From a virus (Duplodnaviria > Caudoviricetes), in the IMG/VR virus record IMGVR_UViG_3300028833_000067, positions 96,001 to 160,000 of that record: a stretch of 64,000 bases of DNA, one strand, 5' to 3'. Within the stretch, counting starts at the first letter, position 1. Every line of letters starts with the position of its first letter. Both the position numbers and the translations under genes were made by a program. Shown in pieces: positions 44,249-63,367 of this stretch. The notes beneath the pieces were generated by a model that had not been told where the DNA came from, made no database searches, and worked only from the letters and a program-made list of their open reading frames with translations.

Positions 44249-44354
44249 TATTTGACTTTTTTCAAATTCCATGATATAATATTTACAGAAGATGAGGAAA
44301 GGAACTCACCTTCTATAAAATAATTTTTTTCATTACATAAGGAGGTAATGAGAT

Positions 44355-44728: not shown

Positions 44729-44991
44729 TGCCCTGCGGTCCGTGGCGGACAGACGGTCTCTAGGCTTAATTGGAGCCTTATATGGGGACATATAAGTGAA
44801 AACGTCGCTAAGTCGGTGAAGGCTTAACTGCTAATACCGAGCAAGGGATAAATCCTATGTGTAGAGACTTTACACGACGCATCTAGAACAGATGAAGATA
44901 AAGTCCAGACCACAATACGAAAGTAATGTGATATAGAAAACCGTGGCCTCTGAAGCAAACGAAGTTGGTTCGATTCCAACCAGGGCAGCCA
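44729..44991 (+). tRNA. amber suppressor tRNA (anticodon CUA, Gln-type acceptor); exons 44729-44761 and 44937-44991
   Basis: Acceptor TGCCCTG/CAGGGCA, G73, encoded CCA; spliced anticodon arm ACGGT-CT-CTA-AA-ACCGT; T arm GTTGG-TTCGATT-CCAAC. Confidence 0.85.
44762..44936 (+). mobile_element. group I self-splicing intron (175 nt, no ORF)
   Basis: Exon U / IGS GGAG P1, terminal G, P2 CTTATATG/CATATAAG, P3 CGTCG/CGACG, TCGGT/ACCGA, R element GTAGAGACT, S element GAAGATAAAGTCC, P8 CATCT/AGATG, GAAA-capped P9. Confidence 0.9.
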
Positions 44992-45668
44992 TTAGGTTCT
45001 TCTCTCAACCTATCGCGACAATAGAGAAGCGGCATGAAAGCGCCGTATAAGTACTTCGGGCACTAATACTATGCCTTAGCTTGCCTAGGAAAGCAAAGTA
45101 TCCGACGAGTTATAACGTCTGTAAAAATGATATAACCGTATTAATGCTACGTATGTGTATTCGCAGTACCGCTAAGGCGTTATGGAGCGGCGTAAGGTGT
45201 CACGATATCGCATCATTAGTGGATAAGGGAATTGCGAACCCTTATGGCCATGATTTTCCGTATTTTGAACGTCATTGCAAGTGGCTTAGTAGAAATGCGG
45301 AATTTTTTATAGGAGAGAGAATATGGAAGATTTAAAGAAAGAATTGGCGCGAGTAGGACTAGATAAAGATGATACAACTGAAAGTATATTACAGGAACTT
45401 GCGCTAGAATGGAATAGCATGTCCCAAGAGCAGAAAGATCATTTTATTGAATTATTCACTCAAGCAGATTTAAACAAAATAATTATTTGACATATAATAA
45501 AATTTTTGTTATAATTTATTCGTAAGGAAGGGAGAGATGAGAATGTTAGATGATTTCATTATGAATTTCTCTTGGGAAGAGCTTGAAGACGAATATTACA
45601 CAATTGAAGATTTGGAAAATGATTATTTGACAGAAGAAGAAAATTAATGTATAATAAAGGAGTAAGAG

Positions 45669-45869
45669 ATGGAAAGTATTAAGTTTTGGTACAATTTCAC
45701 CGATGAAAAGAAACAGATGCCTGATTTCGATTTTGATTTGTCAGTATCTGATGAAAATGGTGTTCATCTTGAAGATGTATGTGAGACATTTATTAAATTT
45801 CTTAAAGTAATTGGATATTCACCTGAAAAAGCAAAGGAATATTTTCCAGACGAGCTAGATTATGATTAA
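45669..45869 (+). CDS. hypothetical protein
   Basis: Promoter + AAGGAG RBS; F..FLKVIGY motif. Confidence 0.65.
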   Translation: MESIKFWYNFTDEKKQMPDFDFDLSVSDENGVHLEDVCETFIKFLKVIGYSPEKAKEYFPDELDYD

Positions 45870-45925
45870 TAAATATTTGACTTTTCACAGAATTTAAGAT
45901 ATAATTAGTATGTTAAAAGGGCAGG

Positions 45926-46042
45926 AACGTAGTGTAGAGGTTCAAATCCTCTTGCGGTGGCTCAAAGTAACAAGTTGGTCACTTGTGCTCGCCGCACGGA
46001 TATAGGCGATACCGCGTTTGGCAAGATCACCGCTTGCACTAC
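45926..46042 (+). ncRNA. tRNA-like RNA, possibly circularly permuted
   Basis: AACGT-AGTGT-T arm (AGAGG TTCAAAT CCTCT)-TGCGGTG...CGCCGCA-D-like-GCGTT; follows promoter at 45877. Confidence 0.45.
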
Positions 46043-46048
46043 TTATAT

Positions 46049-46125
46049 CGGGCACTAGCTCAGCAGGTTAGAGCAGCATCCTTATAAGTTGTGTGTCCCT
46101 GGTTCGAGTCCAGGGTGCCCGACCA
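46049..46125 (+). tRNA. tRNA-Ile(UAU)
   Basis: Full cloverleaf, loop CT-TAT-AA, encoded CCA. Confidence 0.9.
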
Positions 46126-46127
46126 AT

Positions 46128-46193
46128 TAGGCACGCGCAGCAAACTTTTTTTGAACAATTGTCTGCTAAACAATTAAGTTTATCGTGCCTAGT
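46128..46193 (+). ncRNA. stem-CAGCA element A carrying Ser(GCT)-like anticodon arm
   Basis: TAGGCACG/CGTGCCTA-GT, CAGCAAA, AATTGT-CTGCTAA-ACAATT. Confidence 0.65.
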
Positions 46194-46549
46194 ATTTCCC
46201 AATAGGGTAGCATGGATGAGCGCGAACTGAAGTGCTTGAGGGACAGGAACTACCATCTATAGGGCCTGTGAGTAAAGATAGATGGCGTGTGAGAGAAGGT
46301 AAACCTAGACTCCCCACTCAGCTAAACGGATTAGCAAAAGGTGTCGGCTAGGTCGCGGAATGGTTTTATCGGTTATACGACGGAGTGTGAAGGCAAATGG
46401 AAACCGAAGATAGCTATCGTTCACTGCTCGGAGAGACCGAGGATAAATAATCAAGCCCATTCTATGAAATGGTACGGCGCAAAGTTTTGGATGTTCTTCC
46501 AGCATTTGATCGGCGCATTATAAAAGAGGATTAAATCAAAGAATATTGT

Positions 46550-46630
46550 CCGAAAACCATAGGGAGGAATGGAGTTCCTCGGCGGCCAGTAAACTGCAAT
46601 AAATGGTTCGATTCCATATGTGGCGTACCG
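46550..46630 (+). pseudogene. degenerate tRNA-like sequence
   Basis: T arm ATGG-TTCGATT-CCAT, 6-bp D-like stem GAGGAA/TTCCTC, irregular anticodon loop. Confidence 0.35.
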
Positions 46631-46659
46631 ATATGAAGTTCGGAGTAGGGCAATTTTAT

Positions 46660-46730
46660 GCGATTATAGTATAGTGGTAATACGCGGCCTTGCCAAGGCT
46701 GAATCACGAGTCCGAATCTCGTTAGTCGCT
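46660..46730 (+). tRNA. tRNA-Gly(GCC)
   Basis: Cloverleaf, CGGCC-TTGCCAA-GGCTG, U73. Confidence 0.9.
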
Positions 46731-46734
46731 CTTG

Positions 46735-46855
46735 TAGACGTATCAGCAATCTTCTTTTGCATGTGAGAGCCCGTCAAGTGTTGGTTCAACTCCAACCCTC
46801 CCAACAGTTGGGAGGTCGCTCAATTGGCAGAAGCGCGGTTATAAGTACGTCTAGT
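46735..46855 (+). ncRNA. stem-CAGCA element B with circularly permuted tRNA module (YrlA/Y-RNA-like)
   Basis: TAGACGTA/TACGTCTA-GT closing stem; order T arm, loop-closed acceptor CCTCCCA-ACAGT-TGGGAGG, D arm GCTCAATTGGCAGAAGC. Confidence 0.75.
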
Positions 46856-46860
46856 TTTAT

Positions 46861-46933
46861 CGCACCTAGGACAAACAGTTAAGTCACGGCGCTCATAACG
46901 CTTGAGGAATCGGTGCAACTCCGATAGGTGCTA
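46861..46933 (+). tRNA. tRNA-Met(CAU), initiator-like (unpaired C1)
   Basis: Loop CT-CAT-AA; C1/U72 mismatch; T loop TGCAACT. Confidence 0.8.
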
Positions 46934-47016
46934 CTCTCACCTTAGCAAAAGCGGTGACTAAACCGATGTGCGGCTAGCAACCTACTGCTATTTGGTGTAT
47001 AAAGGAGGATGAATGA

Positions 47017-48720
47017 GTGAGAGCAGCAGTTTATAGTGGCACACGCAACATTTACGATAAAATGTTAATTGCGGCAAAATCTTTACTTATGCATTCAAAT
47101 GTGGAAAAAATATATTTTCTTATTGAAGATGATTAGTATCCGTATGAGTTGCCAGAAGAAATAGAATGTATGAATATTAGCGGTCAAACTTATTTTCCTA
47201 GTAGCGGCCCTAATTTTAATAATGTATGTACTTATATGGTATTAATTAGAGCCGCATATTCTAAAATATTTCCAGAATTAGATCGTATTTTAAGTATTGA
47301 CATGGATACCGTTGTTAATGAAAATATATCTGATTTATGGGATTTAGATTTAACAGATTATTATTTGGCCGCGGTTGAAGAATAGGAACTATCAGAAAAA
47401 GAAGGCTCCTATATCAATATGGGTGTGGCAATGTTAAATCTAAAAAAAATTCGTGAAGATAAAAAAGATGATGAATTAATTAGTTCTTTAAATAATTATT
47501 GGTATAGATATAAAGAACAAGATTGTTTCAATGAAGTTTTTCGTGGAAATATTTTAATTTTACCAAGTGATTATAATGCGTGTATTTAGGCGGCTCCACC
47601 CAAACATGAGAAGATTACTCATTTTGCTGGACATTATGAATTAAATAAATTTCCTCATTTTAATTATTATAAAGAATTACCCATAGCTGAACTATAGAGA
47701 AATGTTCCAACACCAGTTACTTTAGATATTATTATTCCAACATATAAAAATAAAAAAGGATTAAGACGAACATTAAATTCTATTCCTTCTAATCCAAATG
47801 TTAATGTAATAGTAGTTGATGATGCATCAGAGTTAGATTATTCTGATATATTAATAGATTATCCTCAATTACATTTTTATTCATTATCAATTAATCAAGG
47901 GCCAGGTATGGCTCGACAATATGGATTAGAACACAGTAATGGAATGTATATTACATTCCTTGATACTGGTGATTATTTTTATGAAAATGGACTTCAAACT
48001 ATATTAAATGCTATTAATGAAAATACATACATTAAACTATATACATTTTCTTATGTATATGATGATAGGAATATATTAAGTGATAGGCCAGATGATAAAA
48101 CTATTGGGTCGGTATATAAACGTTCTTTTATTGAAATGTATAATATTCATTTTAGTAAAGAAGGTTCATACGCTAATGAGGATTATGGTTTTAGTCGTGC
48201 TTGTAAATTAATTTTAGATTAGTGGGAAAGATACCATTTTTCAGATGCTAGAAAGCATATAAAAATACCAGTATTTTATGAGCATATTGATTCTCATTCT
48301 TTAACAAAAGCAAATAATGATGAATTTTTCTTTACCAAATTAAGTCCAGGAATTATTACAAATGGGATTCACGCAATCAATATCGCGCGAAAAGCGGGCA
48401 TTAAAGAAGAATATTTAATAGAAGAATATAATTATATTATGGCTCAAGAATATTTCTTCTTTTTATGTATAATATAGGAACGTCCAGATTTAGCTGATGA
48501 TATATGGACAGTGATACGTAATTATTATTTAAATTGTTATCGTACGTATGAAAAATTTGCTTTACGAAATTTATCTACTTATTTCTCTTAGGTTAGTTTA
48601 CCAAGAATTCGTAGTAGAATGAAGCGCTGGCCAAAAAATATTTCTTTTAATATTATGCGCTTTATTAAAGAATTACAAAATGAAGAATTTACCCCAATTA
48701 GATATTTGACTTTAAATTAA
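47017..48720 (+). CDS. GT8 + GT2 fused glycosyltransferase (TAG-recoded)
   Basis: RILSIDMDTVV..ISDLW, YINMGV, EQDCFN (GT8); LDIIIPTY..VIVVDDAS..GPGMARQYG..ITFLD (GT2). Confidence 0.85.
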
Positions 48721-48847
48721 ATTTAATGTATAATTATTATGTTGAGAGGGAGAAATTCCTCTTATATGGGTAGCGTTGGAGTCATGACCAACGAGGTGAA
48801 GATGCTCCTATCATCGGCCATAATTTTAATTCATAGGAGGAATTATT

Positions 48848-49453
48848 ATGAGTAGAGCAGAAGATGTAAGTAATTATCGTAGAAGAAGAAAACAAAATCT
48901 TATTGAGGTTTTGGGTGGAAAATGTTAGATATGTGGTTTTGATTTATTTGCAGATGCATTAGAATTTCATCATGAAGACCCGACTAAAAAAGATTATGGA
49001 ATTTCTTCAAAAGGGACTTGCCATGATATTGAAACTGACCTGAATGAAGTAAAAAAATGTTTTTTATTGTGTGCAAATTGTCATAGAGGAGTTCATAGTG
49101 GTTATTATGATGCTCCTACAGAACATATATTCAATAATGAATTAGCGCAAAGATTAATTAATGAACGCAATGATAAAATGACTGCTAAATTAAATTATTG
49201 TATTGATTGTCATTGTCAAATAGACTCTACAGCAACTCGCTGTCCAAGTTGTGCAGCAAAAGCCAGACGAGTTTGTGAAAGACCTTCACGAGAAGAATTA
49301 AAGAAATTAATTCGCACATTACCATTTACTCAAATTGGAGAACATTTTGGCGTTAGAGATAATACAATACGTAAATGGTGTGATAATATGAATTTACCAA
49401 AAACTAAAAAAGAAATTAATTCTTACTCTGATGAAGAATGGGAAAAAATTTAA
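48848..49453 (+). CDS. HNH endonuclease with C-terminal HTH (TAG-recoded)
   Basis: LGGKC(TAG)ICG...LEFHH.DP..K...LLCANCHR.VH; IG..FGV.DNTIRKW. Confidence 0.85.
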
Positions 49454-49504
49454 TTTTTGACTTTCTTACAAAAATATACTATAATATATTTGTAAGAAAG
49501 GTAT

Positions 49505-49622
49505 GGGAGATTCGCTAATCGGAATAGCACGCGGCTGGCCTGATACCAAAGAGATATAATAGGGGCAGGTCCTATATCAGACAATTAACCGCGCCAGAGA
49601 GGTTCAACTCCTCTATCTCCCG
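49505..49622 (+). tRNA. tRNA (probably Asn, GUU) with 47-nt insert in anticodon loop
   Basis: GGGAGAT/ATCTCCC, G73; CGCGG-CTG[insert]TTAA-CCGCG; T arm AGAGG-TTCAACT-CCTCT. Confidence 0.7.
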
Positions 49623-49717
49623 CTCGTGCTTTGATGACCAAATGTAGCTTGGCAGTAAATAAACATTAATGCAGATGTGGGGTTATGATGAAAGCCTTTA
49701 CCTTAAAAGGCTATTAT

Positions 49718-49792
49718 GCCCTATTGGACAATCGGTTAAGTCACGTGCCCTTCAAGCACGAGGGCCCGGATCATCCCCGGGATAGGGTACCA
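49718..49792 (+). tRNA. tRNA-Glu(UUC)
   Basis: Cloverleaf with CCA; atypical T loop ATCATCC. Confidence 0.8.
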
Positions 49793-50048
49793 TTCAACCA
49801 CATAAAGCCTGAATTGACAGGATATGACTGGCCAGTTGAGGTCTGGCGGCATACCCAGTGTGGACTTGTTGAAGCATTGGATATGTGTCTCGTGAGCGAT
49901 GACAGCCGTGGTGAGGCAACTATGCCAAAAGAGTGATACTAAAATAGTAAGTGTGTGGAAAGGATGGATTCCCACTAACCTACGGGTAGCGCCCGCTTAG
50001 TCATTTAGTAGCACACTATAATAAAAAGACAACGAAAGTAAGTGGGTC

Positions 50049-50113
50049 AGGCGCATACAGCAAATTCTTATAAGATATTGATAATATTTATGGCTACATT
50101 ATTTGCGCCTAGT
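50049..50113 (+). ncRNA. stem-CAGCA element C carrying Ile(GAT)-like anticodon arm
   Basis: AGGCGCA/TGCGCCT-AGT, CAGCAAA, AGATA-TTGATAA-TATTT. Confidence 0.6.
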
Positions 50114-50118
50114 ATTTT

Positions 50119-50635
50119 TGGTAGTATGCTAGAGCCATCGCGAGGAGAGTTATCTATAACATCCTACGTTCTACCATATGAGATGGCCACCGCCCCTGCG
50201 CTTCGGAAAGCGGTATATAAATTGGAGTAGGGCCACCCGCTATAGGGGATGGAGAAATATGTAGCTTGCGCTTTCGATGCACAGTGGCAGTAGCAAGTAA
50301 AAAATAGACCATCTGGCCGTGCAATAGAGCAGTAAAGTGTACGTTAAAGAATCGGATTCTGCTATGGGTTGTGTTTAATGAGCACGATCTTCGTATATAC
50401 TACGATCTCCAGTATGAGGAAAAACTACCGTTTGGATTGGTTGTAAGGCCATGGTCCACCCCTACGCCGGACACCGCTGAGACGTGCAGCAACCGCGCCG
50501 TAGATGAGTTTCTCTTGACTCTGGGATGTTCCCTAAATAAGAGCGGGATGAATATCCCGCAAATGGTCCCCGAGACAGTAAAGCTGGCGTTTCTAGAGCG
50601 CAAAGATAGTTCGCATACGGGGTTACATACTATCA
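50119..50635 (+). ncRNA. candidate large (~520 nt) structured RNA
   Basis: 10-bp long-range closing helix TGGTAGTATG/CATACTATCA; GC-rich; no RBS-led ORF. Confidence 0.5.
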
Positions 50636-50720
50636 TAAGTACAGGAGCGATGAGCAGTTATTTCGCTTAATATTCGACTAGACCATGGACGCATGGCGGA
50701 CAAATCCTGTATTTTTCTAT

Positions 50721-50803
50721 GCCCAAGTGGCGTAACGGCAGCCGCCAGGGACTTAAAATCCCTTGCTCGTATGAGCGTGCCGGTTCGAATCCGGCCTTGG
50801 GCA
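50721..50803 (+). tRNA. tRNA-Leu(UAA)
   Basis: Class II cloverleaf with long variable arm. Confidence 0.9.
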
Positions 50804-50905
50804 CTTTCCATTAGGTGGAGCTTGGAACCTACCGCCTTTTGGCTGTGATGTACGGGACGTCATAATTTGGCGTCCCTATTTTTAAATCAAAAAGGAGGAA
50901 TTTTT

Positions 50906-51280
50906 ATGAAGAAATTTATCGCACTACTAATAACTTTTATGCTATGTTTTTCTTTAACTTATGCAGAATAGACTGAAGACGTAATAAGTAAACCGCATTC
51001 TGAAACCGTAACAGTTCTGGCACCAAAAGGTGATTGGAGCGTAACCATCACTTCATCCTTAGATGGAAAAGAAAGTGTTATATCTGGTACAGAAGTAACT
51101 TTAACTGCGCACTTTTCTGGCAAGCGTGAAGGCGATACTTTACAGTATATTTGGCAAGAGCGCAAGAGTGAAAACGATAAGTGGAAGGAAATTGGTACAG
51201 ATTCTACCGAATATAAATTTAATATTACAGCTGAAAATGTAACACATCAATGGCGAGTAATAGTTCGTGTGACTTGGTAA
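50906..51280 (+). CDS. secreted Ig-like domain protein
   Basis: Signal peptide MKKFIALL..; VTLTA...LQYIWQ...W.EI...WRVIV. Confidence 0.7.
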
Positions 51281-51293
51281 GGAAGGTGGGAGT

Positions 51294-52607
51294 ATGAAGA
51301 AACTCATAGCATTCCTTTTATGCTTCCTACTAGGCTCCGTAAGCTATGCAGAAGAGTTAATTACTTCTGAATTATTTTTTACTAATATACATATAATTCC
51401 AACATCGAATTATGTAGTAAAATAGTCTAATTTAAATGATTTTAGTATAGTAGCGTTACAAGATGCTACTATACAAGGTCATATTCGTGGCTCTCTTTGG
51501 GTTGGGGGAACTTTAAGAAGTGCTGATTGGATATTTGTAGATGATGGGTCTATCAATCATTCAGGCGCGAAAACCAGTTATATTTATAACAATGAGTCCT
51601 CAATCCAATTTAAAAGTAGAACTAGCGAGCAGAGTAAATACGCATATAATGGATTAACAGATGAGGCGGTACATAAGACTACTAATTATTGGATAAATAT
51701 ACTTGATAAATTAAAAGAGAGTAATTGTGTTTATATTGAGCCAGATAGTAATGGACATGCTGATATTGTAGGTTGGTCGACGCCTGGTATTACGCAATAT
51801 CAGGCGCAGGGAAATGATGAAACAAAACAATCAAGTAATATTGTATATTGGACTGATGCTACATCAGTAACAATTGCAGGAATTATTGGGTTCGTTATAG
51901 CGCCAAAAGCAAATATAATAATACAATCTTCTAATAATAGAATTTCTGTAGTAGGTAAGACAGTAACAGTTAATTGGGCGGAATTACATGTAAATTATGG
52001 TATTCCTAATATTCCTACCCCAACTCCGTCTCCTACTCCAACTCTATCTCCTACCCCGACTCCAACTACAACTGCAACGCCTACTGCAACACCTACTTAG
52101 ACATTTACTCCAACGCCTAAAATAACTAATAGTCCATCGCCAACTCCTACTAATAAAATACCAAGCCCAATATTAACTCCAGTTATTACAATAGTAACAA
52201 TTGTTACTTATACTCCATAGCCTAAAATTACTCCAACACCTACTACAACTTTAGTTAAAACAAATACACCACGACCAAGTTTAATTCCATTAACTCCAAC
52301 TCCAACCCCAACTCCTAAAATTACTATAACTCCAACACCAACCCATACATCAACTCCTAAGATTACAAATACTCCATCTAATACTCCTATTATAACACCC
52401 AAACCAACCCCAACTTTTACCCCAAAAAAGACTCCATCTACACCTACTATTATACCTACTTCTACTCCTACCCCTACTATAACGCCTACTATTGATCCAA
52501 AACGGATTCCAAAAAGACCTGGCATACCAATTCATATTATTAATGAATATGATACGCCACTAGGTTTAGAAATTATAATAAATCATGTAGGAGATTGTTT
52601 TGATTAA
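51294..52607 (+). CDS. secreted protein with choice-of-anchor-A-like domain, Pro/Thr-rich stalk and C-terminal [15 protein letters not shown] motif
   Basis: Signal peptide; [18 protein letters not shown]; (TP)n region 52015-52500. Confidence 0.75.
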
Positions 52608-52888
52608 TGTATTTTATTATTCATACTTTGCTTGAAACAGATATAGGCTTAATTTTAGTAGGGCTTTTAATATTTATAGGACTAGTAGTAGAATTTTTAG
52701 ATAACAATAATAATAGACCACAATTTTAATATTTGACTTATAATAAAAATTTTGTTATAATATTTATGTTGAAAGGGAAACTGAGTAAAAGTCCTTTACA
52801 GTTTGGCGCCATCCCAGTTAGGACTCTAAACTGAACTGTTGTAAGACCGCCGCCCAGCTTAGGGGATGTAAAATATACTAAGCAATAT

Positions 52889-52961
52889 GCTTCCATAGCT
52901 CAACTGGCAGAGCAATACTCTTGTAAAGTATAGGTTGTAAGTTCGATTCTTACTGGGAGCT
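52889..52961 (+). tRNA. tRNA-Thr(UGU)
   Basis: Canonical cloverleaf. Confidence 0.9.
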
Positions 52962-53213
52962 CTATACCAACGGACAAGGCTTTGGCGCATGACAATATCA
53001 GCGAAGAGGGAGCGTAAGCGTTATTAACCTATAAGTGATATTGAACAGGGCGGTGGGACGCGAGTGGTTGGTAATTTATAGCAGAAGGCGCGGCAGTATA
53101 GCACCCTGAAAGGACAAAACCATTACAATATTCTGCTTATTATATGGAACTAATCTATCCGGAGTTCCTGCGGTTCAAGGATAGGGTTTGCGGCACCTTA
53201 GACCGCATCATAT

Positions 53214-53287
53214 GCCTCTCTAATCCAACTGGAAGAGATAGCACGCTTAGAACGTGTACAGTGTAAGTTCAAATCTTACGAGAGGTA
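53214..53287 (+). tRNA. tRNA-Leu(UAG), short variable loop
   Basis: GCACG-CTTAGAA-CGTGT, A73. Confidence 0.8.
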
Positions 53288-53507
53288 CGATTGTTGTTCA
53301 GCTGACAACCCAGTGGATGGATTTGACGCATCCCGTGCTACTACTGCGAGAGGGTTCACGCCTAGGCTTTGCATGCGGACCACGGCCCATGAAGGTAGCA
53401 CATTATATCATCTCTCTTGGCGTATGGCAAGACCGAAAGGATAGAAGCTTGGGTTGGTACCAGATTCCGTTATAACAAGAGCCCACGGGAAAGAGATGGT
53501 AATATTA

Positions 53508-53580
53508 CTCTCCGTAAGCTAACTGGATAAACTCCAACGCTACGAACGTTGCATTGAAGGATCGTACCCTTCCGGGGAGA
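53508..53580 (+). tRNA. tRNA-Arg(ACG)
   Basis: CAACG-CTACGAA-CGTTG; T loop ATCGTAC. Confidence 0.8.
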
Positions 53581-53623
53581 CTTCGCGCGAAAAGCGCAAA
53601 TTCATTTTGGAGGTACCTATAAT

Positions 53624-54163
53624 ATGAATGAACCAAGACTAAAGATTCTTCCCCCATGGACGATTCTAGTAAGGAAGCTAGAGGCTCTATTTGATGGTGA
53701 CCCTCAGATTGCTTTCAATGTTGACTTTAGCGGCGAGCATCCATCTGTTGTTCTTTCCTGTAATAATGGAGACAAAGTTGCTGCACTAATGCAGATTCTA
53801 CCTGAAGAAATTAACTTTGGCAATGTTACATTAAAGGTAATGGTTGATGGCACGCCTAGCAATCGCGCCTTTAAGAGCAAGGTTGAACTATTTAGTACTG
53901 CTTTTGCTAAGAATCCTGCCTATGCGTATTCTGTATGCCCCGCAGAAGAGGGCTATCAGTGGATTGGTACTACTTATGTTGTATTTAATAATTGTGTAGT
54001 ACAGTTCGCGGCTGATAATCTAAATGACTGTCATGGAGTAATTAGTACTCTATATGAGACAATTGCCAGCGAGCTTCTAACTGGACCCGCAACTGAAGGT
54101 GTATTCTTTAATACTAATGTTGAACGCGCGGGACTTGGGATGCCGCTTGGGGAGTGGCCGTAA
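53624..54163 (+). CDS. hypothetical phage protein
   Basis: GGAGG RBS, 179 aa, no TAG. Confidence 0.75.
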   Translation: MNEPRLKILPPWTILVRKLEALFDGDPQIAFNVDFSGEHPSVVLSCNNGDKVAALMQILPEEINFGNVTLKVMVDGTPSNRAFKSKVELFSTAFAKNPAYAYSVCPAEEGYQWIGTTYVVFNNCVVQFAADNLNDCHGVISTLYETIASELLTGPATEGVFFNTNVERAGLGMPLGEWP

Positions 54164-54456
54164 TTTAATATTTTGAGAATAGGTGCTTTCGTAACGAATC
54201 AAGGATATGGTAAGAGTGCAGTTTGACGAGCTGTACCAAAAGACTTGGGCGCCAAAAGGCAGAAGTTAAATGGTATTGAAAACCAGCCTATTCCGCCGAG
54301 ATGTCGGTAGTAGCAAATATTCATACGCGAGTAAATGCAAACATCATAAATCCTACAATAGCCAGCGATAGCATGGACGCTATGGACGCCCTTTAAAGTT
54401 GTTCGCGGTAGTGAGAATAACCTTCGCCGTGGCGAAGTAAAAGAGCCACGGAATAT

Positions 54457-54529
54457 GCGCCATTAGCTCATCTGGTAGAGCACAGCACTTTTAATGCTGG
54501 CGTGCGGAGTCCGAGTCTCCGATGGCGCA
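54457..54529 (+). tRNA. tRNA-Lys(UUU)
   Basis: Canonical cloverleaf. Confidence 0.9.
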
Positions 54530-54596
54530 CTAATAATTGACATTAAATAAAATTTATAGTATAATTATTTCAGTAAGAAGGAAAGGAAGTAAGAAT

Positions 54597-54827
54597 ATGA
54601 GAGATCCAAATCGTATTGATAGGTTTTGTGATGAGCTTAAAGCGATTTGGCATCAAGTGCCAGATTGGCGCTTTGGGCAACTCATGGAAAATATGCTTAG
54701 TGCAAGGCTACAAGCAGTACAAAATCCCAATGGTTTCTTTTATACTGAAGATGAAGAATTGTTTGCCTTCTTTGAAAGCTATATAAAAGAAATTGTAAAA
54801 GATGGCAGACAAAATAAAGATTGGTAA
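54597..54827 (+). CDS. hypothetical phage protein (MRDP.RI..PDWRFGQL family)
   Basis: Motif common in phages. Confidence 0.7.
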   Translation: MRDPNRIDRFCDELKAIWHQVPDWRFGQLMENMLSARLQAVQNPNGFFYTEDEELFAFFESYIKEIVKDGRQNKDW

Positions 54828-55033
54828 TAACTAATCCACCTGACATGGCTGTGACTACAAGGCGCGGAAAGGTGGCGGCAATCTCTAGCCCAAGCAAGTT
54901 GAAACGATATACACCCTTGGGATGAAAGCTCAACACAGAGCAGAGCGAGATATAACGTGAGTTTTATATACATATGTATGTAGTCGGTCTCCCTGTGGCC
55001 CGTTACGTTATAGGTTGGCACAGGGGAAGCTTC

Positions 55034-55110
55034 CGGGCATTGGCGCAATCGGTTAGCGCGCAGACCTGATAAGTCTGAGGTTTCTGGTTCGATTCCAGAA
55101 TGCCCGACCA
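55034..55110 (+). tRNA. tRNA-Ile(GAU)
   Basis: Canonical cloverleaf with CCA. Confidence 0.92.
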
Positions 55111-55200
55111 CCGAGGCGGGAAGCTCAAAGATACGTGGATGGCCAACACGGTCGTGCGAGTAAAATCCAGCGCAAATAGCCCGTAGGATCCTCGGGCCAT

Positions 55201-55346
55201 AGGAGAATCATATAACGGTAGTATGGCGGTCTCCGGGGCGATAGTGTAAAGAACACACTAGGAAAGCAAGGACCTAGTAATTGAAGGGCAGTACTGAGGC
55301 GCTCCACCAAAAACCGTTCGTCCTGGTTCAAATCCAGGCTCTCTTG
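55201..55346 (+). tRNA. tRNA-Trp(CCA) split by a nested 75-nt tRNA-Ala-like insert (55235-55309)
   Basis: GCGGT-CTCC[insert]AAA-ACCGT, T arm CCTGG-TTCAAAT-CCAGG, G73; insert GGGGCG...CGCTCC-ACCA. Confidence 0.75.
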
Positions 55347-55350
55347 CTTA

Positions 55351-55416
55351 AAGACTCGTCAGCAACATTTTTCAAGCATCTAATTGTTAATTTGACTAGC
55401 TATAAACGAGTCTTGT
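55351..55416 (+). ncRNA. stem-CAGCA element D carrying Asn(GTT)-like anticodon arm
   Basis: AAGACTCGT/ACGAGTCTT-GT, CAGCAA, AGCA-TCTAA-TTGTTAA-TTTGA. Confidence 0.6.
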
Positions 55417-55421
55417 TTTAT

Positions 55422-55495
55422 ACCCTACTACCCCAATTGGCAGAGGGAACTGACTCAAAATCAGTAAAGTCTCGGTCCGAATCCGAGGTGGGGTA
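55422..55495 (+). tRNA. tRNA-Leu(CAA), short variable loop
   Basis: ACTGA-CTCAAAA-TCAGT, A73. Confidence 0.8.
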
Positions 55496-55895
55496 CTATT
55501 TAAACCGAGTGTCTGGGGCCTTCTTCGCTCTTTTCCCAGCCGAAACGCACAAAGACTCCTGCGTCTGAGCGAGGCGGAAGTGGAGTTGCCGGGTTTACAT
55601 CCCTGCGGTTTACCGGCTATTTTATACTTATCTGATTTAAGCCCAGTATACTAAAGCGATATAACTTTTATGGGCTTCGTGCAATAAGATAAGTATTGCG
55701 CCAAGAGATTTAAAGGTTATGCATTGAGGCGCGCTGAGCGAGCTCCAGCTCACATTATTAAACAATTTATTGGAGCATGATTGGTGAATAGAGTGCGATC
55801 GGTAACACTGTAAATAATTCCGGAAGTAATAGCACAGGTTAGAGTCGCCGGACCTCTGTTAATTGGGGCGAAAACACCATCCAAAGTGCTGTTAT

Positions 55896-55966
55896 GGGGA
55901 TATAGTATAACAGTAAAACAGTAGCTTTGCAAGCTTCAGACCGGGGAGCGTCACCCCGTATCTCCA
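55896..55966 (+). tRNA. tRNA-Ala(UGC)
   Basis: G3.U70 pair, loop TT-TGC-AA; T loop AGCGTCA. Confidence 0.85.
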
Positions 55967-55987
55967 CTTCATTTAGGAGGACTATAT

Positions 55988-56284
55988 ATGAAATATAAAG
56001 TAATTACATTATGTGGTTCAACGCGCTTTAAGGAAGATTTTGAACGTATTAATCGAGAACTTACACTTTAGGGCAATATAGTAATTAGTGTTGGTTGTTT
56101 TGGCCATGCCGGAGATGTATTTACAGAAGAGTAGAAAGAAATGCTCGATGATATCCATAAGCGTAAGATTGATATGGCTGATGAGATCTTCGTTATTAAT
56201 AAAGGTAAATATATTGGCACAAGTACCCGTAATGAAATTGAATATGCAATTTTGCATGATAAACCAGTGAGGTATATGGAATAA
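55988..56284 (+). CDS. DUF4406 / nucleoside 2-deoxyribosyltransferase-like protein (TAG-recoded)
   Basis: VITLCGSTRFK...H.RKIDMADEIFVIN..YIG.ST..EIEYA. Confidence 0.75.
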
Positions 56285-56309
56285 TTTATATCAGATGGAG
56301 TTGATGTGT

Positions 56310-56615
56310 ATGCGTAATCGTGCAGAAAAGCGTCATAATGATTGGAAAAAGGCTATTCGTAAGCGTCGTATTGATCGAGAAACGCAAGGTACTTCTTTAT
56401 TTTCCCATGATACTTTTGAATATTTACATCAATATTCTAAAGGGCATTGGGCTTGTGGTTGTGGCATGTGTAAACGATATAATAAGACCAATAATCGTGG
56501 ACGGAAACGGAAAATTCATGGTAATTATGCGCCATCTAAAAATTGGTCAGTACAAGATGAACGCCGTATCGAAGAAATGGAAGATCAAATACTTGACAAT
56601 GAACAAGATTTCTGA
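56310..56615 (+). CDS. basic hypothetical protein (C-x-C-x-x-C)
   Basis: R.RAEKRH..WKKAIRKR...CGCGMC. Confidence 0.65.
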   Translation: MRNRAEKRHNDWKKAIRKRRIDRETQGTSLFSHDTFEYLHQYSKGHWACGCGMCKRYNKTNNRGRKRKIHGNYAPSKNWSVQDERRIEEMEDQILDNEQDF

Positions 56616-56730
56616 TATAATTATTATAGAAAAAGGGAGATAAGATATACATAAGAGGCAACTTGATAGAGTTTGTTGCAAAACATTAAATAGTAAACAT
56701 CTCCTTTCTCGCGGCGAAAGCCGCATTTAT

Positions 56731-56805
56731 CGGGGCGTAGCTCAGTTTGGCTAGAGCGGGTGGTTTGGGACCATCAGGTCGCGTGTTCGAATCGCGTCGC
56801 CCCGA
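56731..56805 (+). tRNA. tRNA-Pro(UGG)
   Basis: Canonical cloverleaf. Confidence 0.92.
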
Positions 56806-56809
56806 CTTA

Positions 56810-56875
56810 TAGGCCATTACAGCATAATCATATTTAAATGGAAAGAATAATTGCATATTATTAAAATGGCCTAGT
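56810..56875 (+). ncRNA. stem-CAGCA element E carrying Cys(GCA)-like anticodon arm
   Basis: TAGGCCATT/AATGGCCTA-GT, CAGCA, AATAA-TTGCATA-TTATT. Confidence 0.6.
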
Positions 56876-56991
56876 ATTTAAATATTCGCGCTTCGGCGTA
56901 AATAGATTACCGCGTTGGGATCCGTATAGGTGAAAAGCCCTATTTGAAAGAGGCGGAGTAGTATCCGCAACTCTTCCGCGGCGTTTTTAAT

Positions 56992-57142
56992 TTAGAACTG
57001 TAGGCTTAGAAGCAGCCATCAGCTAAAGAGTTTTCTTTTCTCCATGCGTGCGAAATGTATTATGGGCTTACAATTATTTGTCCTATAAGTATGATGTGCG
57101 GTGGGTAATAGAAAAAGAAATTTGGCGTAATAGCACATCTAA
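56992..57142 (+). ncRNA. 23S rRNA uL11-binding domain (H43-H44, GTPase-associated centre) mimic with ~90-nt insertion
   Basis: TGTAGGCTTAGAAGCAGCCATC..TAAAGAG[insert]GCGTAATAGC, closed by TTAGA/TCTAA. Confidence 0.8.
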
Positions 57143-59460: not shown

Positions 59461-59518
59461 ATTTGACTTTTAACTAAAATTAATGTATAATTTTTATATA
59501 AGAAAAGGAGTTGATATT

Positions 59519-59986
59519 ATGCCGATTTTGTATATTCTCTGCGGACCGAGTGGATGCGGAAAAACTACCTGGGCTATGAATTTTATGAAAGAACATGATA
59601 ATATTCATTATGTATCTCGGGATGAAATTCGTTTTGAATTGGTAAAACCCGATGAGAGTTATTTTTCGCGCGAAAAAGAAGTCTTTCGGTGCTTTGCTAA
59701 TACCATTCGGCATACTCTTGTTGATGGCTTTGATTGTATTGCCGACGCCACTCACTTAAATGAATTTTCGCGTCGTAAGCTAACACAAGCAATTGATATG
59801 TATTTTAAAGATTATGAAATTGTTTATGTTAGTTTTAATGTAAGCGCAGATACATGTATTGAACATAACGCCAATCGTGAAGGCAGGGCGAATGTGCCTG
59901 AAACTGTAATTCGTAATATGTGCCGTGATTTTAGAACTCCTTCTATTGAAGAAGATGAACGTGTGAAAGAGGTAATTGAAGTATGA
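59519..59986 (+). CDS. polynucleotide kinase-like P-loop protein (AAA_33)
   Basis: GPSGCGKTT, VSRDEIR, IADATHL, R.G..VPE.VI. Confidence 0.85.
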   Translation: MPILYILCGPSGCGKTTWAMNFMKEHDNIHYVSRDEIRFELVKPDESYFSREKEVFRCFANTIRHTLVDGFDCIADATHLNEFSRRKLTQAIDMYFKDYEIVYVSFNVSADTCIEHNANREGRANVPETVIRNMCRDFRTPSIEEDERVKEVIEV

Positions 59987-60603
59987 GCGAGATTTTCTTC
60001 ACGAGTGATACTCATTTCGGGCACCAGCCCGAGTTCCTTTGGAAGCCTAGAGGTTTTTCTTCTGTAGAAGAAATGGATGAAGCCATTATTGAAAATTGGA
60101 ATAAAGTAGTAAAACAAGGAGATATAGTATATCATCTTGGAGATACTATGCTCAACGATAATGTACATGGACTTGAATGTTTCAAGCGGTTAAATGGACA
60201 GATTTTTCTTATCTACGGAAACCATGATACTAATGCTAGAAATAATTTGCTTTTTACAGATGACCGTACCATACATAAAATGCTCGGCGGCTGGTATGCT
60301 TGGCTTATTAAATATGGTAAACTTTCCATTTACATGAGCCACTATCCCACGCTTACAAGCAATTATGATCAGAAACACTTCAGCCAGCATGTACTGAGCC
60401 TTCACGGGCACACTCATCAGAAAACAAATTGGCTTGACCCGAAAAACCCCTTTCTTTATCATGTTGGCCTAGACTCCCATAATAATACGCCAGTTCATAT
60501 TGATGAAGTAATCACAGATATTCGTCAGCGTTGGGAAGAAATTGGGCGTCTGCCAGTACCAGTTCAGCCGCAAGATACTTATCCATATACTTCTATTATT
60601 TGA
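59983..60603 (+). CDS. calcineurin-like metallophosphoesterase
   Basis: SDTHFGH, HLGD, GNHD, SHYP, HGHTH. Confidence 0.9.
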   Translation: MSEIFFTSDTHFGHQPEFLWKPRGFSSVEEMDEAIIENWNKVVKQGDIVYHLGDTMLNDNVHGLECFKRLNGQIFLIYGNHDTNARNNLLFTDDRTIHKMLGGWYAWLIKYGKLSIYMSHYPTLTSNYDQKHFSQHVLSLHGHTHQKTNWLDPKNPFLYHVGLDSHNNTPVHIDEVITDIRQRWEEIGRLPVPVQPQDTYPYTSII

Positions 60604-60889
60604 CTTTATTTAAATCTATGGTATAATAATTATGTTAGAAGATAATAAGTGCTTAATTGGGTCGCCATGTGAACATTGTATAAGTAGCTGTACATTTAGA
60701 ATAAGAAAGGATAAAAATATGGAACAAGATAAACATCCATGTGATAATTGTCCACCTCCGCATATGTGCGGTCATTGTACTTTATGTGAAGAATGGGAAA
60801 AAACTCATCCTAAAAAAGAAATCAAAGAAAAATATGAATGGGAATAACCTACGGTCTTGATAAAGACTAAGATGAAAAGGAGAATGAAA

Positions 60890-62380
60890 ATGAACAAACT
60901 ACTAAAGAATCTAAAAACTGAAACCAATTATACTCATACTGAAAATGGCGCCCTTACTCATAAGTCGACCCTTAATAAGGTGCTGGATATGTTTGCTATG
61001 GGCGGTTCTATGCGGAATCGCTCGGACGATGACGTTATTAATATGTTCAAGCAGGCATACGAAGAGAATAAGACTCTCGCACTAAAGTGCCTCTTCTATA
61101 TGCGCGATATACGTGGTGGCGCAGGCGAGAGACGTTTTTTCCGCATTTGCATCAAGTGGCTCGCTAATGAGTATCCAGAAGAGATGGAGCACCTAATTCC
61201 TTTCATTAGTGAATATGGCCGCTATGATGATCTTTTTGAGCTATTTGATACTCACTGCGAAGCCGCGATGATGGGATATATCTTTCATGTTCTTAATAAG
61301 AATGAAGATCATCTTATTTATAAATGGATGCCTTCGATCAACGCATCTTCTAAAGAAAGCAAGATTCGTGGGCGTAAATTCGTGCGTGAATTTGGCATGA
61401 CAGAGCGTCAGTATCGTCAGATGCTTTCTGAAGGTCGTAAAGCTTGCCATCTGGTTGAAACTCTTATGAGCCAGAATCAGTGGGATCAGATTGCGTTTGA
61501 TCATCTGCCTTCTCGCGCAGGACTTCTTTATAAGAATGCCTTCATGCGCCGTGAAGAAACTAAAGAGCGCTATGCTGAATTTATGTCCCGCAAGGACGCT
61601 AAAGTAAATGCAAGTGTATTGAATCCTGTCGAAATCGCGCACCAGATTCTCAATACATGGCGCACTCCCTCTGCTACTGAACGTCAGGCTTGGCAGAAGT
61701 ATTGGGATAATCTAAAAGATTATTACAATGGCCGCGAAGAGCCTGGCATCGCAGTAGTTGATGTAAGTGGTAGTATGAATGGCACTCCTATGGAAGCCGC
61801 AGTTTCTATGGGCGCGTATATTGCCGAACGTGGAAAAGGCCCGTTCCAGAACCACTTTATTACCTTTAGTGCTAATCCACAGCTTGTAGAATTCGAAGGC
61901 GTGGATATTTATGACAAGTTTAAGCGCGCAATAGAAGCAGACTGGGGACAGAATACGAACCTCGAAGCAGTATTTGATATGCTGCTGGAGACTGGTCTAC
62001 GTAATCATGTGCCAGACGCTGAAATGCCTAAAACAATTTACATATTTTCAGATATGGAATTTGATGACGGCTTGACTTGCGGCGCACGTACCACTGATCG
62101 TTGGGGACGCGTTCATTCGATGAATCGCTCACAGATTGATACACTCATTGAAGCCAAAACTAAAGAGTGGATGCGGGCAGGATATACAGTACCAAGAGTA
62201 ATCTTTTGGAATCTTGACGCTCGTCAGCCTAATATTCCAGCTATTGGCCCGGGGTTCTCTTATTGCAGTGGTTTCTCTATGAGTGCGCTTGAAGGAGTAC
62301 TCTCTGGTAAAGATGGCGTCGAAATGATGCGAACTGTACTAGAAGGAGAGCGCTATGCGCCAATTTCTAGTGTTCTATAA
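60890..62380 (+). CDS. DUF2828 / TROVE(Ro60)-like protein with C-terminal vWA domain
   Basis: TENGA, RDIRGG.GERR, YGR.DDL, KWMPS, VVDVSGSM (MIDAS), IFSDMEFD, VIFWNL, SGFS. Confidence 0.8.
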   Translation: MNKLLKNLKTETNYTHTENGALTHKSTLNKVLDMFAMGGSMRNRSDDDVINMFKQAYEENKTLALKCLFYMRDIRGGAGERRFFRICIKWLANEYPEEMEHLIPFISEYGRYDDLFELFDTHCEAAMMGYIFHVLNKNEDHLIYKWMPSINASSKESKIRGRKFVREFGMTERQYRQMLSEGRKACHLVETLMSQNQWDQIAFDHLPSRAGLLYKNAFMRREETKERYAEFMSRKDAKVNASVLNPVEIAHQILNTWRTPSATERQAWQKYWDNLKDYYNGREEPGIAVVDVSGSMNGTPMEAAVSMGAYIAERGKGPFQNHFITFSANPQLVEFEGVDIYDKFKRAIEADWGQNTNLEAVFDMLLETGLRNHVPDAEMPKTIYIFSDMEFDDGLTCGARTTDRWGRVHSMNRSQIDTLIEAKTKEWMRAGYTVPRVIFWNLDARQPNIPAIGPGFSYCSGFSMSALEGVLSGKDGVEMMRTVLEGERYAPISSVL

Positions 62381-62467: not shown

Positions 62468-63367
62468 ATGTGGACAGAAGATGAAATTTTAGCTATTCCA
62501 GATAAAGGCATAGATTGCCGAGGAATAACATATCAAAGAGTCTCTTTATCTTCTCGTATGGAAGATTAGAGCGGTATTATACATGGACGTTTATTACCAT
62601 TATTTCCGATATTAAAACCTAATACTAATAAAAAAGAATGGTTGTGCTTATGCTCATGTGGTAATATAAAAGTAGTAAATAGTTCTAATCTAAAGTCTGA
62701 AAAAATTACTAGTTGTGGTTGTTTACGCTCTGAAACTACTGCCAATCATATTACTGCGATTAACCATGCTAGAAAAGAAGATTTTACTGGTAGAACTATA
62801 AAAGACTTATATGTTTTAGAACTAGATAAGGAAATGTCATTTACTCATTCTCAAAATGGGTCAATACATTATTATTGGAAGTGTCAATGTACTAATTGTA
62901 ATAATATTATGTCATTACGCGTTGATACTCTAAAAGATACCAAAAGAGTTTATTGTCGTTTTTGTAATGCCACCAAGTCAGTAGGCGAAATATTAATTAG
63001 AAATCTATTATTACAGAATAATATTCCTTTTACAGAAGAACAAACATTTTCCAATTGTATTTTTCCAGACACTAAAGCTAAAGCTAAATTTGATTTTTAT
63101 GTCAATAATCAATATTTAATAGAGTATGATGGAACTCAACATTTTAGAGCCTCAAGTATGTTTCCTGATATTAGTAAAATTCAAGAACATGATTATATAA
63201 AGAATTTATGGTGCTATCAGAATAATATACCACTAATTAGGATTCCGTATAGTCATGTAGAAAATATAAAAATAGAAGACTTACGGCTTGAGACAACTCA
63301 GTATAGAATGGAGTATGAAAATGGAAGATTTATTATCAAAAGTAAAGCAACATCACTTTATTGTTAA
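62468..63367 (+). CDS. putative homing endonuclease, paralog of 4631..5677 (one TAG)
   Basis: WLCLCSCGN..SCGC; KFDFYV...LIEYDG.QHF..LIRIPY. Confidence 0.75.

Follow-up and report, generated by a model that had tools for sequence, protein, structure and literature searches.

Background

The protein Ro60 and Y RNAs form particles that have been described in animals, in some bacteria and in a small number of phages; the role of the tRNA-like part of bacterial Y RNAs is still open. In a Y RNA, the 5' and 3' ends pair into a stem which lies by a conserved single-stranded motif; the genes are found beside ro60 and on its strand, and a tRNA-like domain may be present (PMC4201824). The Ro60 protein of the Thermus phage phiLo binds two phage Y-like RNAs, Yrl1 and Yrl2 (PMC12135203). 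Here, five related RNA elements (E1 to E5) are described on the plus strand of a 64,000-nucleotide (nt) stretch of viral DNA, referred to as the window, which corresponds to bases 96001-160000 of the virus record IMGVR_UViG_3300028833_000067 (176,887 nt, 98% complete by CheckV). The elements, at window positions 46128, 46735, 50049, 55351 and 56810, share a stem-and-motif module, called the handle, which encloses a variable cargo. They are probably Y-RNA-like partners, carrying tRNA-derived cargo, of a divergent Ro60-like DUF2828/DUF7788 protein encoded in the same window. Public runs holding the stretch derive from the gut of sheep, cattle and goat.

A classic target of anticodon nucleases is tRNA-Lys, and the confrontation between T4 Pnk and Rnl1 on one side and PrrC on the other is a case of phage tRNA repair answering a host anticodon nuclease. 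Circularly permuted tRNA genes are known from Cyanidioschyzon merolae. Phage tRNA arrays and tRNA repair directed against anticodon nucleases have been reviewed for jumbo phages (PMC7824862). The dictyostelid Class I RNAs, 42-65 nt long and reported as unique to Dictyostelia, feature a covarying 6-bp terminal stem with AAG and CUGU ends and, after the 5' stem strand, the 11-nt motif CCUUACAGCAA (PMC7919456); their published search pattern is GTTGRCCTTACAGCAA ... GTCAACTG (PMC5054030).

Results

Five elements with a common handle

Each element is closed by a helix of 7-10 bp, almost wholly Watson-Crick, followed after zero to two linker bases by CAGCA(A/U), while on the 3' side an (A/U)GU tail and a U-rich stretch lie behind the closing helix (Table 1). 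The outer part of the helix is conserved, (A/U)AGRC...GYCU(U/A), and the inner part varies between copies with compensation. In the four short copies (E1, E3, E4 and E5), CAGCA is separated from the 3' stem strand by 45-46 nt. A sequence-only reading of the window had described the five sites, the covarying closing stem with CAGCA(A) and (A)GT, and a length of about 65 nt for four of the elements; all of this was borne out in the window, the four short elements measuring 65-66 nt, and the covariation of the stem also in the copies collected with the covariance model described below. When the window was scanned for CAGCA with a complementary flanking stem, E1-E5 ranked at or near the top, and no other match brought together a 7-10 bp stem containing no more than one G.U pair, the (A)GU tail and the 45-46 nt spacing seen in four of the five. 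The bare pattern CAGCA...CTAGT occurs near chance level (5 matches versus 3.3 expected), and the distinctive feature is the combination of CAGCA with the closing stem, not the pattern alone.

Four of the five (E1, E2, E4 and E5) begin 0-4 nt behind the 3' end of a tRNA, as the earlier reading had stated. E1 starts 2 nt past tRNA-Ile(UAU) (46049-46125) and E5 3 nt past tRNA-Pro(UGG) (56731-56806); E2 is flanked by tRNA-Gly(GCC) (46660-46731) and a tRNA at 46861-46933, and E4 lies between an interrupted tRNA-Trp and tRNA-Leu(CAA) (55422-55496). This tRNA-Trp is called by ARAGORN only once a 75-nt insert (55235-55309) has been removed. E3 is not preceded by a called tRNA. The interiors of the elements are AT-rich and weakly folding, and their anticodon-like hairpins are out of register between copies.

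Over 43-59 kb, Rfam assigned no family to any of the five elements, either at gathering score or at an expectation value (E) of at most 1, and megablast of 44-58 kb against cultured phages gave no match. Some structural explanations were tried and dropped. Known self-cleaving ribozyme classes were discarded after Rfam scans of short stretches gave only sub-threshold YrlA and chance matches, the latter including Chlorobi-RRM and twister-sister, which owe their scores to the T-arm region. Pairing of CAGCAA with the loop bases UUG/CUG into a pseudoknot would amount to no more than 3-4 bp and is lost in homologs. Finally, CAGCA could not be explained as a remnant of an anticodon stem, such as the CAGCA/UGCUG stem of the phage tRNA-Lys, since the elements contain no matching 3' strand.

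Table 1. Handle elements, their internal parts and associated genes (window positions unless stated otherwise)
Feature	Position	Strand	Description
E1, ~66 nt	46128-46193	+	Closing stem 46128-46135 with 46184-46191, TAGGCACG/CGTGCCTA; CAGCAA 46138-46143; GU tail
E1 hairpin	46157-46175	+	Loop CUGCUAA = Ser-GCU anticodon loop
E2, ~121 nt	46735-46855	+	Stem TAGACGTAT/GTACGTCTA; CAGCAA at 46744
E2 cargo, YrlA-like		+	T arm 46780-46796; loop-closed acceptor-like stem 46797-46815; D arm 46818-46834
E3, ~65 nt	50049-50113	+	Stem 50049-50055 with 50104-50110, AGGCGCA/TGCGCCT; CAGCAA 50058-50063
E3 hairpin	50073-50089	+	Loop UUGAUAA = Ile-GAU loop
Possible sixth, degenerate copy (uncertain)	50479-50596	+	GAGACGU-G-CAGCAA, ~95 nt cargo, GCGUUUC-UAG; two G.U pairs
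E4, ~66 nt	55351-55416	+	Stem 55351-55359 with 55406-55414, AAGACTCGT/ACGAGTCTT; CAGCAA 55360-55365
E4 hairpin	55379-55395	+	Loop UUGUUAA (Asn-like); one U.U mismatch in stem
E5, ~66 nt	56810-56875	+	Stem 56810-56818 with 56865-56873, TAGGCCATT/AATGGCCTA; CAGCAU 56820-56825
E5 hairpin	56846-56862	+	Loop UUGCAUA; U at position 37, no purine
P-loop kinase (AAA_33), RNA-repair neighbour	59483-59986	+	
Metallophosphoesterase, RNA-repair neighbour	59983-60603	+	
DUF2828 + DUF7788 (vWA) protein, 507 amino acids, proposed partner	60857-62380	+	Pfam PF11443, PF25043
RlaP-family nucleotidyltransferase, continues past window end	63288-64000	+	
RNA ligase (PF09414)	G000 162694-163911		~2.7 kb past window end

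Conservation of the handle

In a MAFFT alignment, the cargo hairpins were not registered and CAGCAA was shifted in copies lacking a linker; a covariance model (R1) was therefore built on the handle alone, seeded from the window phage and its close relatives. E1, E3 and E5, which are seed members, score 65.5, 64.5 and 75.3 bits, respectively; E4, outside the seed, scores 38.5 bits (E 1e-4), and E2 scores 20.7 bits (E 0.4). Matches were counted at E<=1, and at this threshold the whole 176,887-nt genome contains no further copy; the possible sixth copy listed in Table 1 is not matched either.

Nine related viral contigs were found via the DUF2828 protein, and seven of them hold R1 matches, with 3-5 copies in each record that has any; there is no match in L007, which has no upstream DNA. 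In these relatives the elements are on the strand of the DUF2828 gene and at kept sites, namely behind tRNA-Pro and between tRNA-Trp and tRNA-Leu(CAA), the latter position being occupied by E4 orthologs in L001, L002 and L004. Across six phage genomes or partial records (~817 kb), copies are found solely in the tRNA array, again on the strand of the gene. A further 73 viral DUF2828 loci, with 28-75% protein identity, yielded 63 R1 matches in 42 loci.

The helix is maintained by compensatory change. In 26 distinct copies from the window phage and close relatives, 93.6% of the stem cells are paired and double changes affect 6 of the 9 pairs; in 62 distinct non-seed copies, the corresponding values are 93.2% and all 9 pairs. 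The covariation score of these 62 copies is 0.59, versus 0.16 +/- 0.015 for shuffled alignments and at most 0.15 when partners are slid. Within the same set C14, G16 and C17 of the motif are invariant, A15, A18 and A19 are nearly so, and the G after the stem is invariant. The elements thus constitute a real RNA family rather than a local repeat, made up of a constant scaffold and a variable part.

A predicted Ro60-like fold of the DUF2828 protein

The structure of the DUF2828 protein of the window was modelled with AlphaFold2, and a Foldseek search of the model against the PDB returned Ro60/TROVE structures as all 13 of its best matches (Thermus phage phiLo, Xenopus, human and Deinococcus). 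With VIA-align, the ten best matches are all Ro60, with Z from 14.7 to 10.6 over 385-409 residues, and cover both the helical ring and the vWA domain, while the next match after this set (Z 8.6) covers the vWA domain alone. A look-up in the ESM Atlas gave only DUF2828 clusters and nothing on eukaryotes. The protein is thus predicted to fold like the RNA-binding ring Ro60, and a 'Ro-like' label has already been given to the mycobacteriophage protein by SEA-PHAGES annotators. Because of this predicted fold, a protein-bound scaffold, as the sequence-only reading had suggested, is the best reading of the elements, and it also agrees with the position of the handle next to the DUF2828 gene.

Linkage of the handle to the DUF2828 gene

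Each of the 63 R1 matches in the 73 further viral loci shares the strand of the DUF2828 gene. Many of them precede the gene by 150-900 nt, and those of the most distant loci follow it closely. By tblastn, the protein was detected in 710 of 50,697 phage records, including Felix-O1-type coliphages, the Listeria phage P100 and many mycobacteriophages. Handles in three of these phages, described next, and in bacterial loci were found by a motif scan. P100 has three handle RNAs in tandem just upstream of gp165, and in Mycobacterium phage Rose5 three are located in a 367-nt gap after the annotated 'Ro-like RNA binding protein' (gene 53), 4 kb from the only annotated tRNA. In the Felix-O1-type coliphage vB_EcoM_3HA14 (MN342151.1), four handle RNAs are found in a tRNA array right behind the DUF2828 gene.

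Records of Cloacimonadales, Anaerolineae, Thermoflexus and Oscillospiraceae contain one to three stem + ACAGCAA elements at 30-500 nt from the DUF2828 gene and on its strand, and ARAGORN finds no tRNA in the 6-kb flanks of these loci. The flanking genes of three scanned bacterial loci are unrelated, which leaves DUF2828 as the sole common neighbour. In an Oscillospiraceae metagenome-assembled genome (221-kb contig; L114:3031-7467), rtcB, three tandem handle RNAs and the DUF2828 gene follow one another, one of the RNAs carrying a YrlA-like cargo, and a divergent WYL-domain gene lies upstream of rtcB. This order mirrors that of the Salmonella rsr-yrlBA-rtcBA operon (PMC7790460). As judged from gene order in phages and bacteria, the handle is linked to the DUF2828 gene and not merely to tRNAs.

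The P100 record (DQ004855.1) also contains, about 1 kb upstream of gp165, a ROOL-like RNA (L171:4426-4977; 86 bits, gathering score 99.1). Its tRNAs are annotated on the strand opposite to the one given by Rfam.

Cargo: tRNA-like folds and anticodon arms

Inside the handle, E2 and its counterparts have a T arm, then an acceptor-like stem of 7 bp whose end is closed by a loop, and, after a two-base linker, a D arm, which is the topology of YrlA (PMC4201824). Counterparts with the same cargo are found in relatives at L019:1000 and L025:2934. The Rfam YrlA model scores 17.5 bits (E 0.17) on this part of E2 and aligns end to end with the analogous element of a relative (34.9 bits) and with one of phage Rose5 (36.4 bits), against a gathering score of 69. 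An E5-type element of L001 (4259-4354) encloses a whole, unpermuted, AT-rich cloverleaf (4272-4343), which obtains 28.4 bits on Rfam tRNA, just under the gathering score of 29; E5 itself retains the D-like and anticodon parts alone. In another member of the family, the tRNA-like fold is opened in the variable region. None of the five elements is called as a tRNA by ARAGORN or Rfam.

A separate arrangement is seen in the handle RNA at L058:9812-9947, whose cargo resembles a circularly permuted tRNA-Tyr. It opens with the anticodon arm, followed by a long variable arm and the T arm; next come the 3' acceptor strand, ACCA and a short linker, and finally the 5' acceptor strand with the D arm. If this RNA were cut at its acceptor ends, the product would be a tRNA in two pieces that the handle keeps together.

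Anticodon-type hairpins, defined by a 7-nt YU-NNN-R-N loop with T loops excluded, were counted in 86 distinct R1-confirmed elements. They are present in 41 of the 86, versus 6.8 +/- 2.6 after shuffling (about six-fold), and in 24 of the 86 (0.8 shuffled) the loop exactly reproduces one found in a real tRNA of those loci, both counts being inflated by relatedness among copies. The commonest exact match (10/24) is CUUUUAA, the loop of tRNA-Lys(UUU). The E4 group, of Lys/Asn type, has a 5-bp stem that is 95.6% paired, with double changes at 4 of 5 pairs, enclosing a fixed loop, YU(U/G)UUAA. Homologs of E1 keep the stem and a covarying hairpin, with loops of 8 or 9 nt or the non-natural 'anticodon' AUU; an E3 homolog (L025:1501) has a 5-nt loop in place of the 7-nt one, the loops of E5-type elements vary, and several short family members have no anticodon-type hairpin.

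When judged as anticodon stem-loops (about 5 bp, a 7-nt loop, U33 and a purine at 37), E1, E3 and the E4 group fit, and E5 has U37. The four loops that had been read from the sequence as anticodon loops (CUGCUAA, UUGAUAA, UUGUUAA and UUGCAUA) are present, although the stem of E4 contains a U.U mismatch, E5 lacks the purine and the hairpin of E3 can zip on to a triloop. The further notion of isolated anticodon arms needs correcting for the E5 group, where the arm is the remnant of a complete tRNA-like fold. In homologs, the expected constraint to 7-nt loops holds about by half, being apparent in the fixed loop and covarying stem of the Lys/Asn type and absent from the elements with 5-, 8- or 9-nt loops, AUU or variable E5-type loops. 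Anticodon-arm mimicry is therefore real for part of the family.

RNA-library evidence

Evidence at the RNA level consists of exactly matching assembled contigs; they come from a single sheep-gut sample, for which there are two RNA libraries. Contigs starting at 45998 or 46066 and ending at 46455 span tRNA-Ile, E1 and about 260 nt beyond, at a depth of 404-510 compared with 7-28 on the adjacent coding contigs (20-50 times), whereas the DNA run is flat over this stretch, with every piece at ~20-29. The contig depth fits transcription of the stretch containing E1. For E4 and E5 the cover in the RNA libraries is low or mixed and uninformative.

Structured stretches free of open reading frames (ORFs) in 44934-45400, 45868-46801 and 49604-50537 (e.g. 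46200-46650 and 49800-50700) have no Rfam match. Their summed RNA-library depth is ~240-1670 versus 5-27 over the coding region 46802-49603, with a flat DNA run, and they are probably abundant, uncharacterised phage RNAs. In one RNA library, a summed contig depth of 1839 over 56609-57075 might reflect cross-mapping of real rRNA.

Discussion

Comparison with described RNAs

Handle RNAs and Y RNAs are alike in their terminal stem, which in E1-E5 measures 7-10 bp and covaries in the 26 and in the 62 distinct copies, and in the conserved motif that lies unpaired next to its 5' strand; in both, the genes are sited on the same strand as a nearby gene whose product has a known or predicted Ro60-type fold. 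The loci resemble Ro60/Y-RNA loci further in grouping several RNA genes next to one for a ring + vWA protein and in having RNA-repair neighbours, rtcB in one bacterial locus. Moreover, as with YrlA and YrlB, one class of handle RNA has the T arm/closed acceptor/D arm arrangement and shorter siblings share the handle only, as YrlB does. This shared anatomy is the reason why the handle is read as a docking module and the tRNA-derived cargo as the working end. The statement of the sequence-only reading that no known family could be assigned therefore needs correction: the architecture is that of Y RNAs of the YrlA/YrlB type, and one class matches the Rfam YrlA model from end to end, below threshold.

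The handle RNAs are nevertheless not members of YrlA (RF02553), with scores of 17-36 bits versus the gathering score of 69 and no tRNA-like domain in the short copies. Unlike known Y RNAs they are embedded in tRNA arrays, with at least five per genome, and unlike YrlA and YrlB their cargo includes lone anticodon arms and unpermuted cloverleaves. As both the motif and the Rfam score fail YrlA and the protein is not TROVE by sequence, the system is best considered a variant of the Ro/Y-RNA kind. In the literature searched no paper links DUF2828 to RNAs, and Rfam has no family for the handle.

In length, in the short covarying stem that joins their two ends and in those ends themselves, the handle RNAs agree with the published pattern of Class I RNAs, insofar as published patterns alone were compared. 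In both, a single-stranded motif ending in UACAGCAA stands right after the 5' stem strand, and the handle's (U/A)UACAGCAA and (A/U)AG...CU(U/A)GU ends conform to the pattern; the AAGAC...GUCUUGU of E4 resembles the AAG start and CUGU end, with a variable middle in both. Unlike handle RNAs, Class I RNAs are eukaryotic, have their own DUSE promoter and are directly bound by the RRM protein Rnp1A, and no tRNA-like cargo has been described for them.

The locus is also similar to those of phages which counter anticodon nucleases, with a large tRNA array adjoining genes for a kinase, a phosphoesterase, RlaP and an RNA ligase. Anticodon loops, and the loop of tRNA-Lys(UUU) foremost, are copied in the cargo. 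The handle RNAs themselves are not tRNAs. Finally, some members recall permuted tRNA genes in that their 5' acceptor strand and D arm follow the T arm and 3' acceptor strand, with ACCA between the two acceptor strands in the L058 element. They differ from the Cyanidioschyzon genes in occurring in bacterial viruses, in being enclosed by a handle and in showing no bulge-helix-bulge motif.

Interpretation

Taken together, the covariation of the handle, its linkage to the gene, the predicted fold, the tRNA-like cargo, the precedent of Y RNAs, the RNA-repair neighbours and the RNA contigs make it probable that E1-E5 are Y-RNA-like partners of the Ro60-like protein. Two modules are combined in each RNA: the handle, with its 7-10 bp end-to-end helix, single-stranded (A)CAGCAA on the 5' side and 3' GU tail, and a tRNA-derived cargo that ranges from a permuted tRNA-like fold (E2), via a shrunken cloverleaf, to a lone look-alike of an anticodon arm (E1, E3, E4 and E5). 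The RNAs would be transcribed as part of the tRNA operon and could be freed from it when RNase P, RNase Z or RNase E process the tRNAs on either side. The handle would then dock on the Ro-like ring in the way a Y RNA uses its stem and bulge to bind Ro60, and the cargo may recruit tRNA-recognising factors, such as host anticodon nucleases, tRNA-modifying enzymes or the phage's own set of kinase, phosphoesterase, RlaP and ligase. Such a particle might work in tRNA surveillance or repair, or in counter-defence, during infection.

Several observations weigh against this interpretation. The handle contains ACAGCAA and lacks the Ro-binding motif GNCGAA/CGAA (GGUCCGA in animals), of which only the G-R-C within the handle stem recalls the GNC. 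The AlphaFold2 model is of middling confidence (mean predicted local distance difference test score, pLDDT, of 70), the protein has no sequence match to Pfam TROVE, and a sequence-profile search of the PDB with it matched no solved chain. Unlike Ro60, the candidate partner is thus a DUF2828/DUF7788 and not a TROVE protein, and it resembles Ro60 in predicted fold only; for this reason it is regarded as a divergent Ro60-like protein rather than an evident ortholog. In the window, 4-15 kb separate the gene from the RNAs, which belong to the tRNA array, and as the gene abuts the array in these phages, association with the gene and association with tRNAs are inseparable there. The conservation of the motif among R1 matches is partly circular, the model having been built from close relatives; R1 has no match in the viral loci L009 and L092-L101, nor in most bacterial loci with a protein 33-37% identical to the query. 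These misses may be a limit of a model built on close relatives. Lastly, the RNA contigs show neither ends nor within-contig levels, and DNA carry-over in the libraries is possible.

Overall, the observation made in the sequence-only reading is confirmed, and its interpretation, a protein-bound scaffold that would display decoys to anticodon nucleases, synthetases or T-box leaders, is supported in part, for the scaffold and for the mimicry.

If the Y-RNA-like reading is true, the family would be a second and much commoner viral version of the Ro/Y-RNA system, and cultured phages with DUF2828 (Felix-O1-type, P100 and mycobacteriophages) put its genetics and biochemistry within reach. A cargo that is interchangeable, from a whole tRNA mimic to a bare anticodon arm, would point to a contest between phage and host over tRNA cleavage and repair, and the pattern match offers a testable lead on the binding partners of the Class I RNAs of social amoebae. 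A more far-reaching version, which we consider unlikely, sees in these RNAs and the DUF2828 protein an undescribed Ro/Y-RNA branch whose cargo would act as bait or decoy for host anticodon nucleases, foremost those directed at tRNA-Lys, and would couple their attack to the nearby healing-and-sealing enzymes; Class I RNAs, which are defined by the same handle, would likewise be Y-like partners of a Ro-like protein.

Alternative explanations

Decoy action may also be combined with a Ro-like partner, as the job of the cargo, and has to be distinguished from the proposal that the short RNAs are free-standing anticodon decoys, i.e. competitive substrates or inhibitors of anticodon nucleases (PrrC, RloC, PARIS, retron-Ptu or colicin-like) or of other anticodon readers, with a handle that confers stability only. 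This is decidedly improbable. Many loops are exact 7-nt copies, CUUUUAA above all, the Lys/Asn-type stem varies around a fixed loop, and phage tRNA arrays and RNA-repair genes surround the elements; nonetheless, in about half of the family an anticodon-type loop is missing, or the loop has 5, 8 or 9 nt or a non-natural 'anticodon', and the strongest constraint falls on the handle and not on the loop. Since relatedness among copies inflates the loop counts as well, the loop statistics support mimicry, not the decoy mechanism. A cis-acting role, in which the handle is a leader or trailer site of the DUF2828 mRNA used for autoregulation and no free RNA is made, would account for the many loci in which a copy precedes the gene by 150-500 nt on its strand. 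It is hard to reconcile with the window phage, where tRNAs and other genes lie between the gene and copies 4-15 kb away, or with genomes that have more than one copy, with copies in tandem and with copies located behind the gene, and we give it very little weight.

The close association with tRNAs invites two other accounts. The elements could be punctuation of the tRNA operon, the stem and U-rich tail serving as spacers, RNase sites or weak terminators without any function in trans, as the abutment of four of the five on tRNA ends (0-4 nt) and the U-rich stretch behind the stem would suggest. But the same handle stands beside DUF2828 genes with no tRNA gene nearby, most tRNA junctions in the arrays have no element, and neither an invariant single-stranded ACAGCAA nor a tRNA-like cargo is expected of spacers, which makes this account highly unlikely. 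The near-complete tRNA-like folds in relatives (L001:4272-4343 and L058:9812-9947) are instead what decaying or unusual tRNA genes would produce, whether permuted or split tRNAs or their remnants, translating or fossil, with the handle as a leader-trailer helix. The short copies, however, have no D arm, T arm or free acceptor ends and are called by neither ARAGORN nor Rfam, and the handle is kept down to 28% protein identity while the cargo changes freely, which is not a pattern of decay; purifying selection on the handle also speaks against fossils, and the chance that the elements are tRNA genes of this sort seems very small.

Gene neighbourhood and genetic code

The plus-strand array between 44 and 58 kb comprises at least 13 tRNA genes, interspersed with other structured RNAs. 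Directly after it comes an RNA-repair cluster in the order kinase, metallophosphoesterase, DUF2828 protein, RlaP and then RNA ligase (Table 1). Among the other structured RNAs, a cow-rumen-4 RNA of Rfam lies at 44285-44351, just upstream of an ORF (57.6 bits, above the gathering score), and a cow-rumen-3-like RNA at 50366-50460 scores 79.2 bits, under the gathering score of 86.7.

The long structural genes in 1-44248 and 47017-52607 are open only with TAG as a sense codon; an example is 13760-23422, which encodes 3220 amino acids with 21 TAG codons. No TAG occurs in the RNA-repair genes (59483-62380). A suppressor-type amber tRNA (anticodon CUA) at 44729-44991 is broken by a 175-nt insert, and ARAGORN calls tRNA(cta) after removal of 44762-44936. 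A contig joint which skips exactly this insert is present in the RNA libraries and also in a DNA run; intron-less relatives therefore exist, and the joint is not proof of splicing.

Two other tRNAs are interrupted in the anticodon region by structured inserts, and ARAGORN calls each only with the insert removed. In tRNA-Trp(CCA) (55201-55347), the 75-nt insert terminates in CGCUCCACCA; in tRNA-Asn(GUU) (49505-49622), the insert comprises 47 nt (49538-49584). The adjacent kinase, phosphoesterase and ligase could provide a candidate protein-based splicing route for the interrupted tRNAs.

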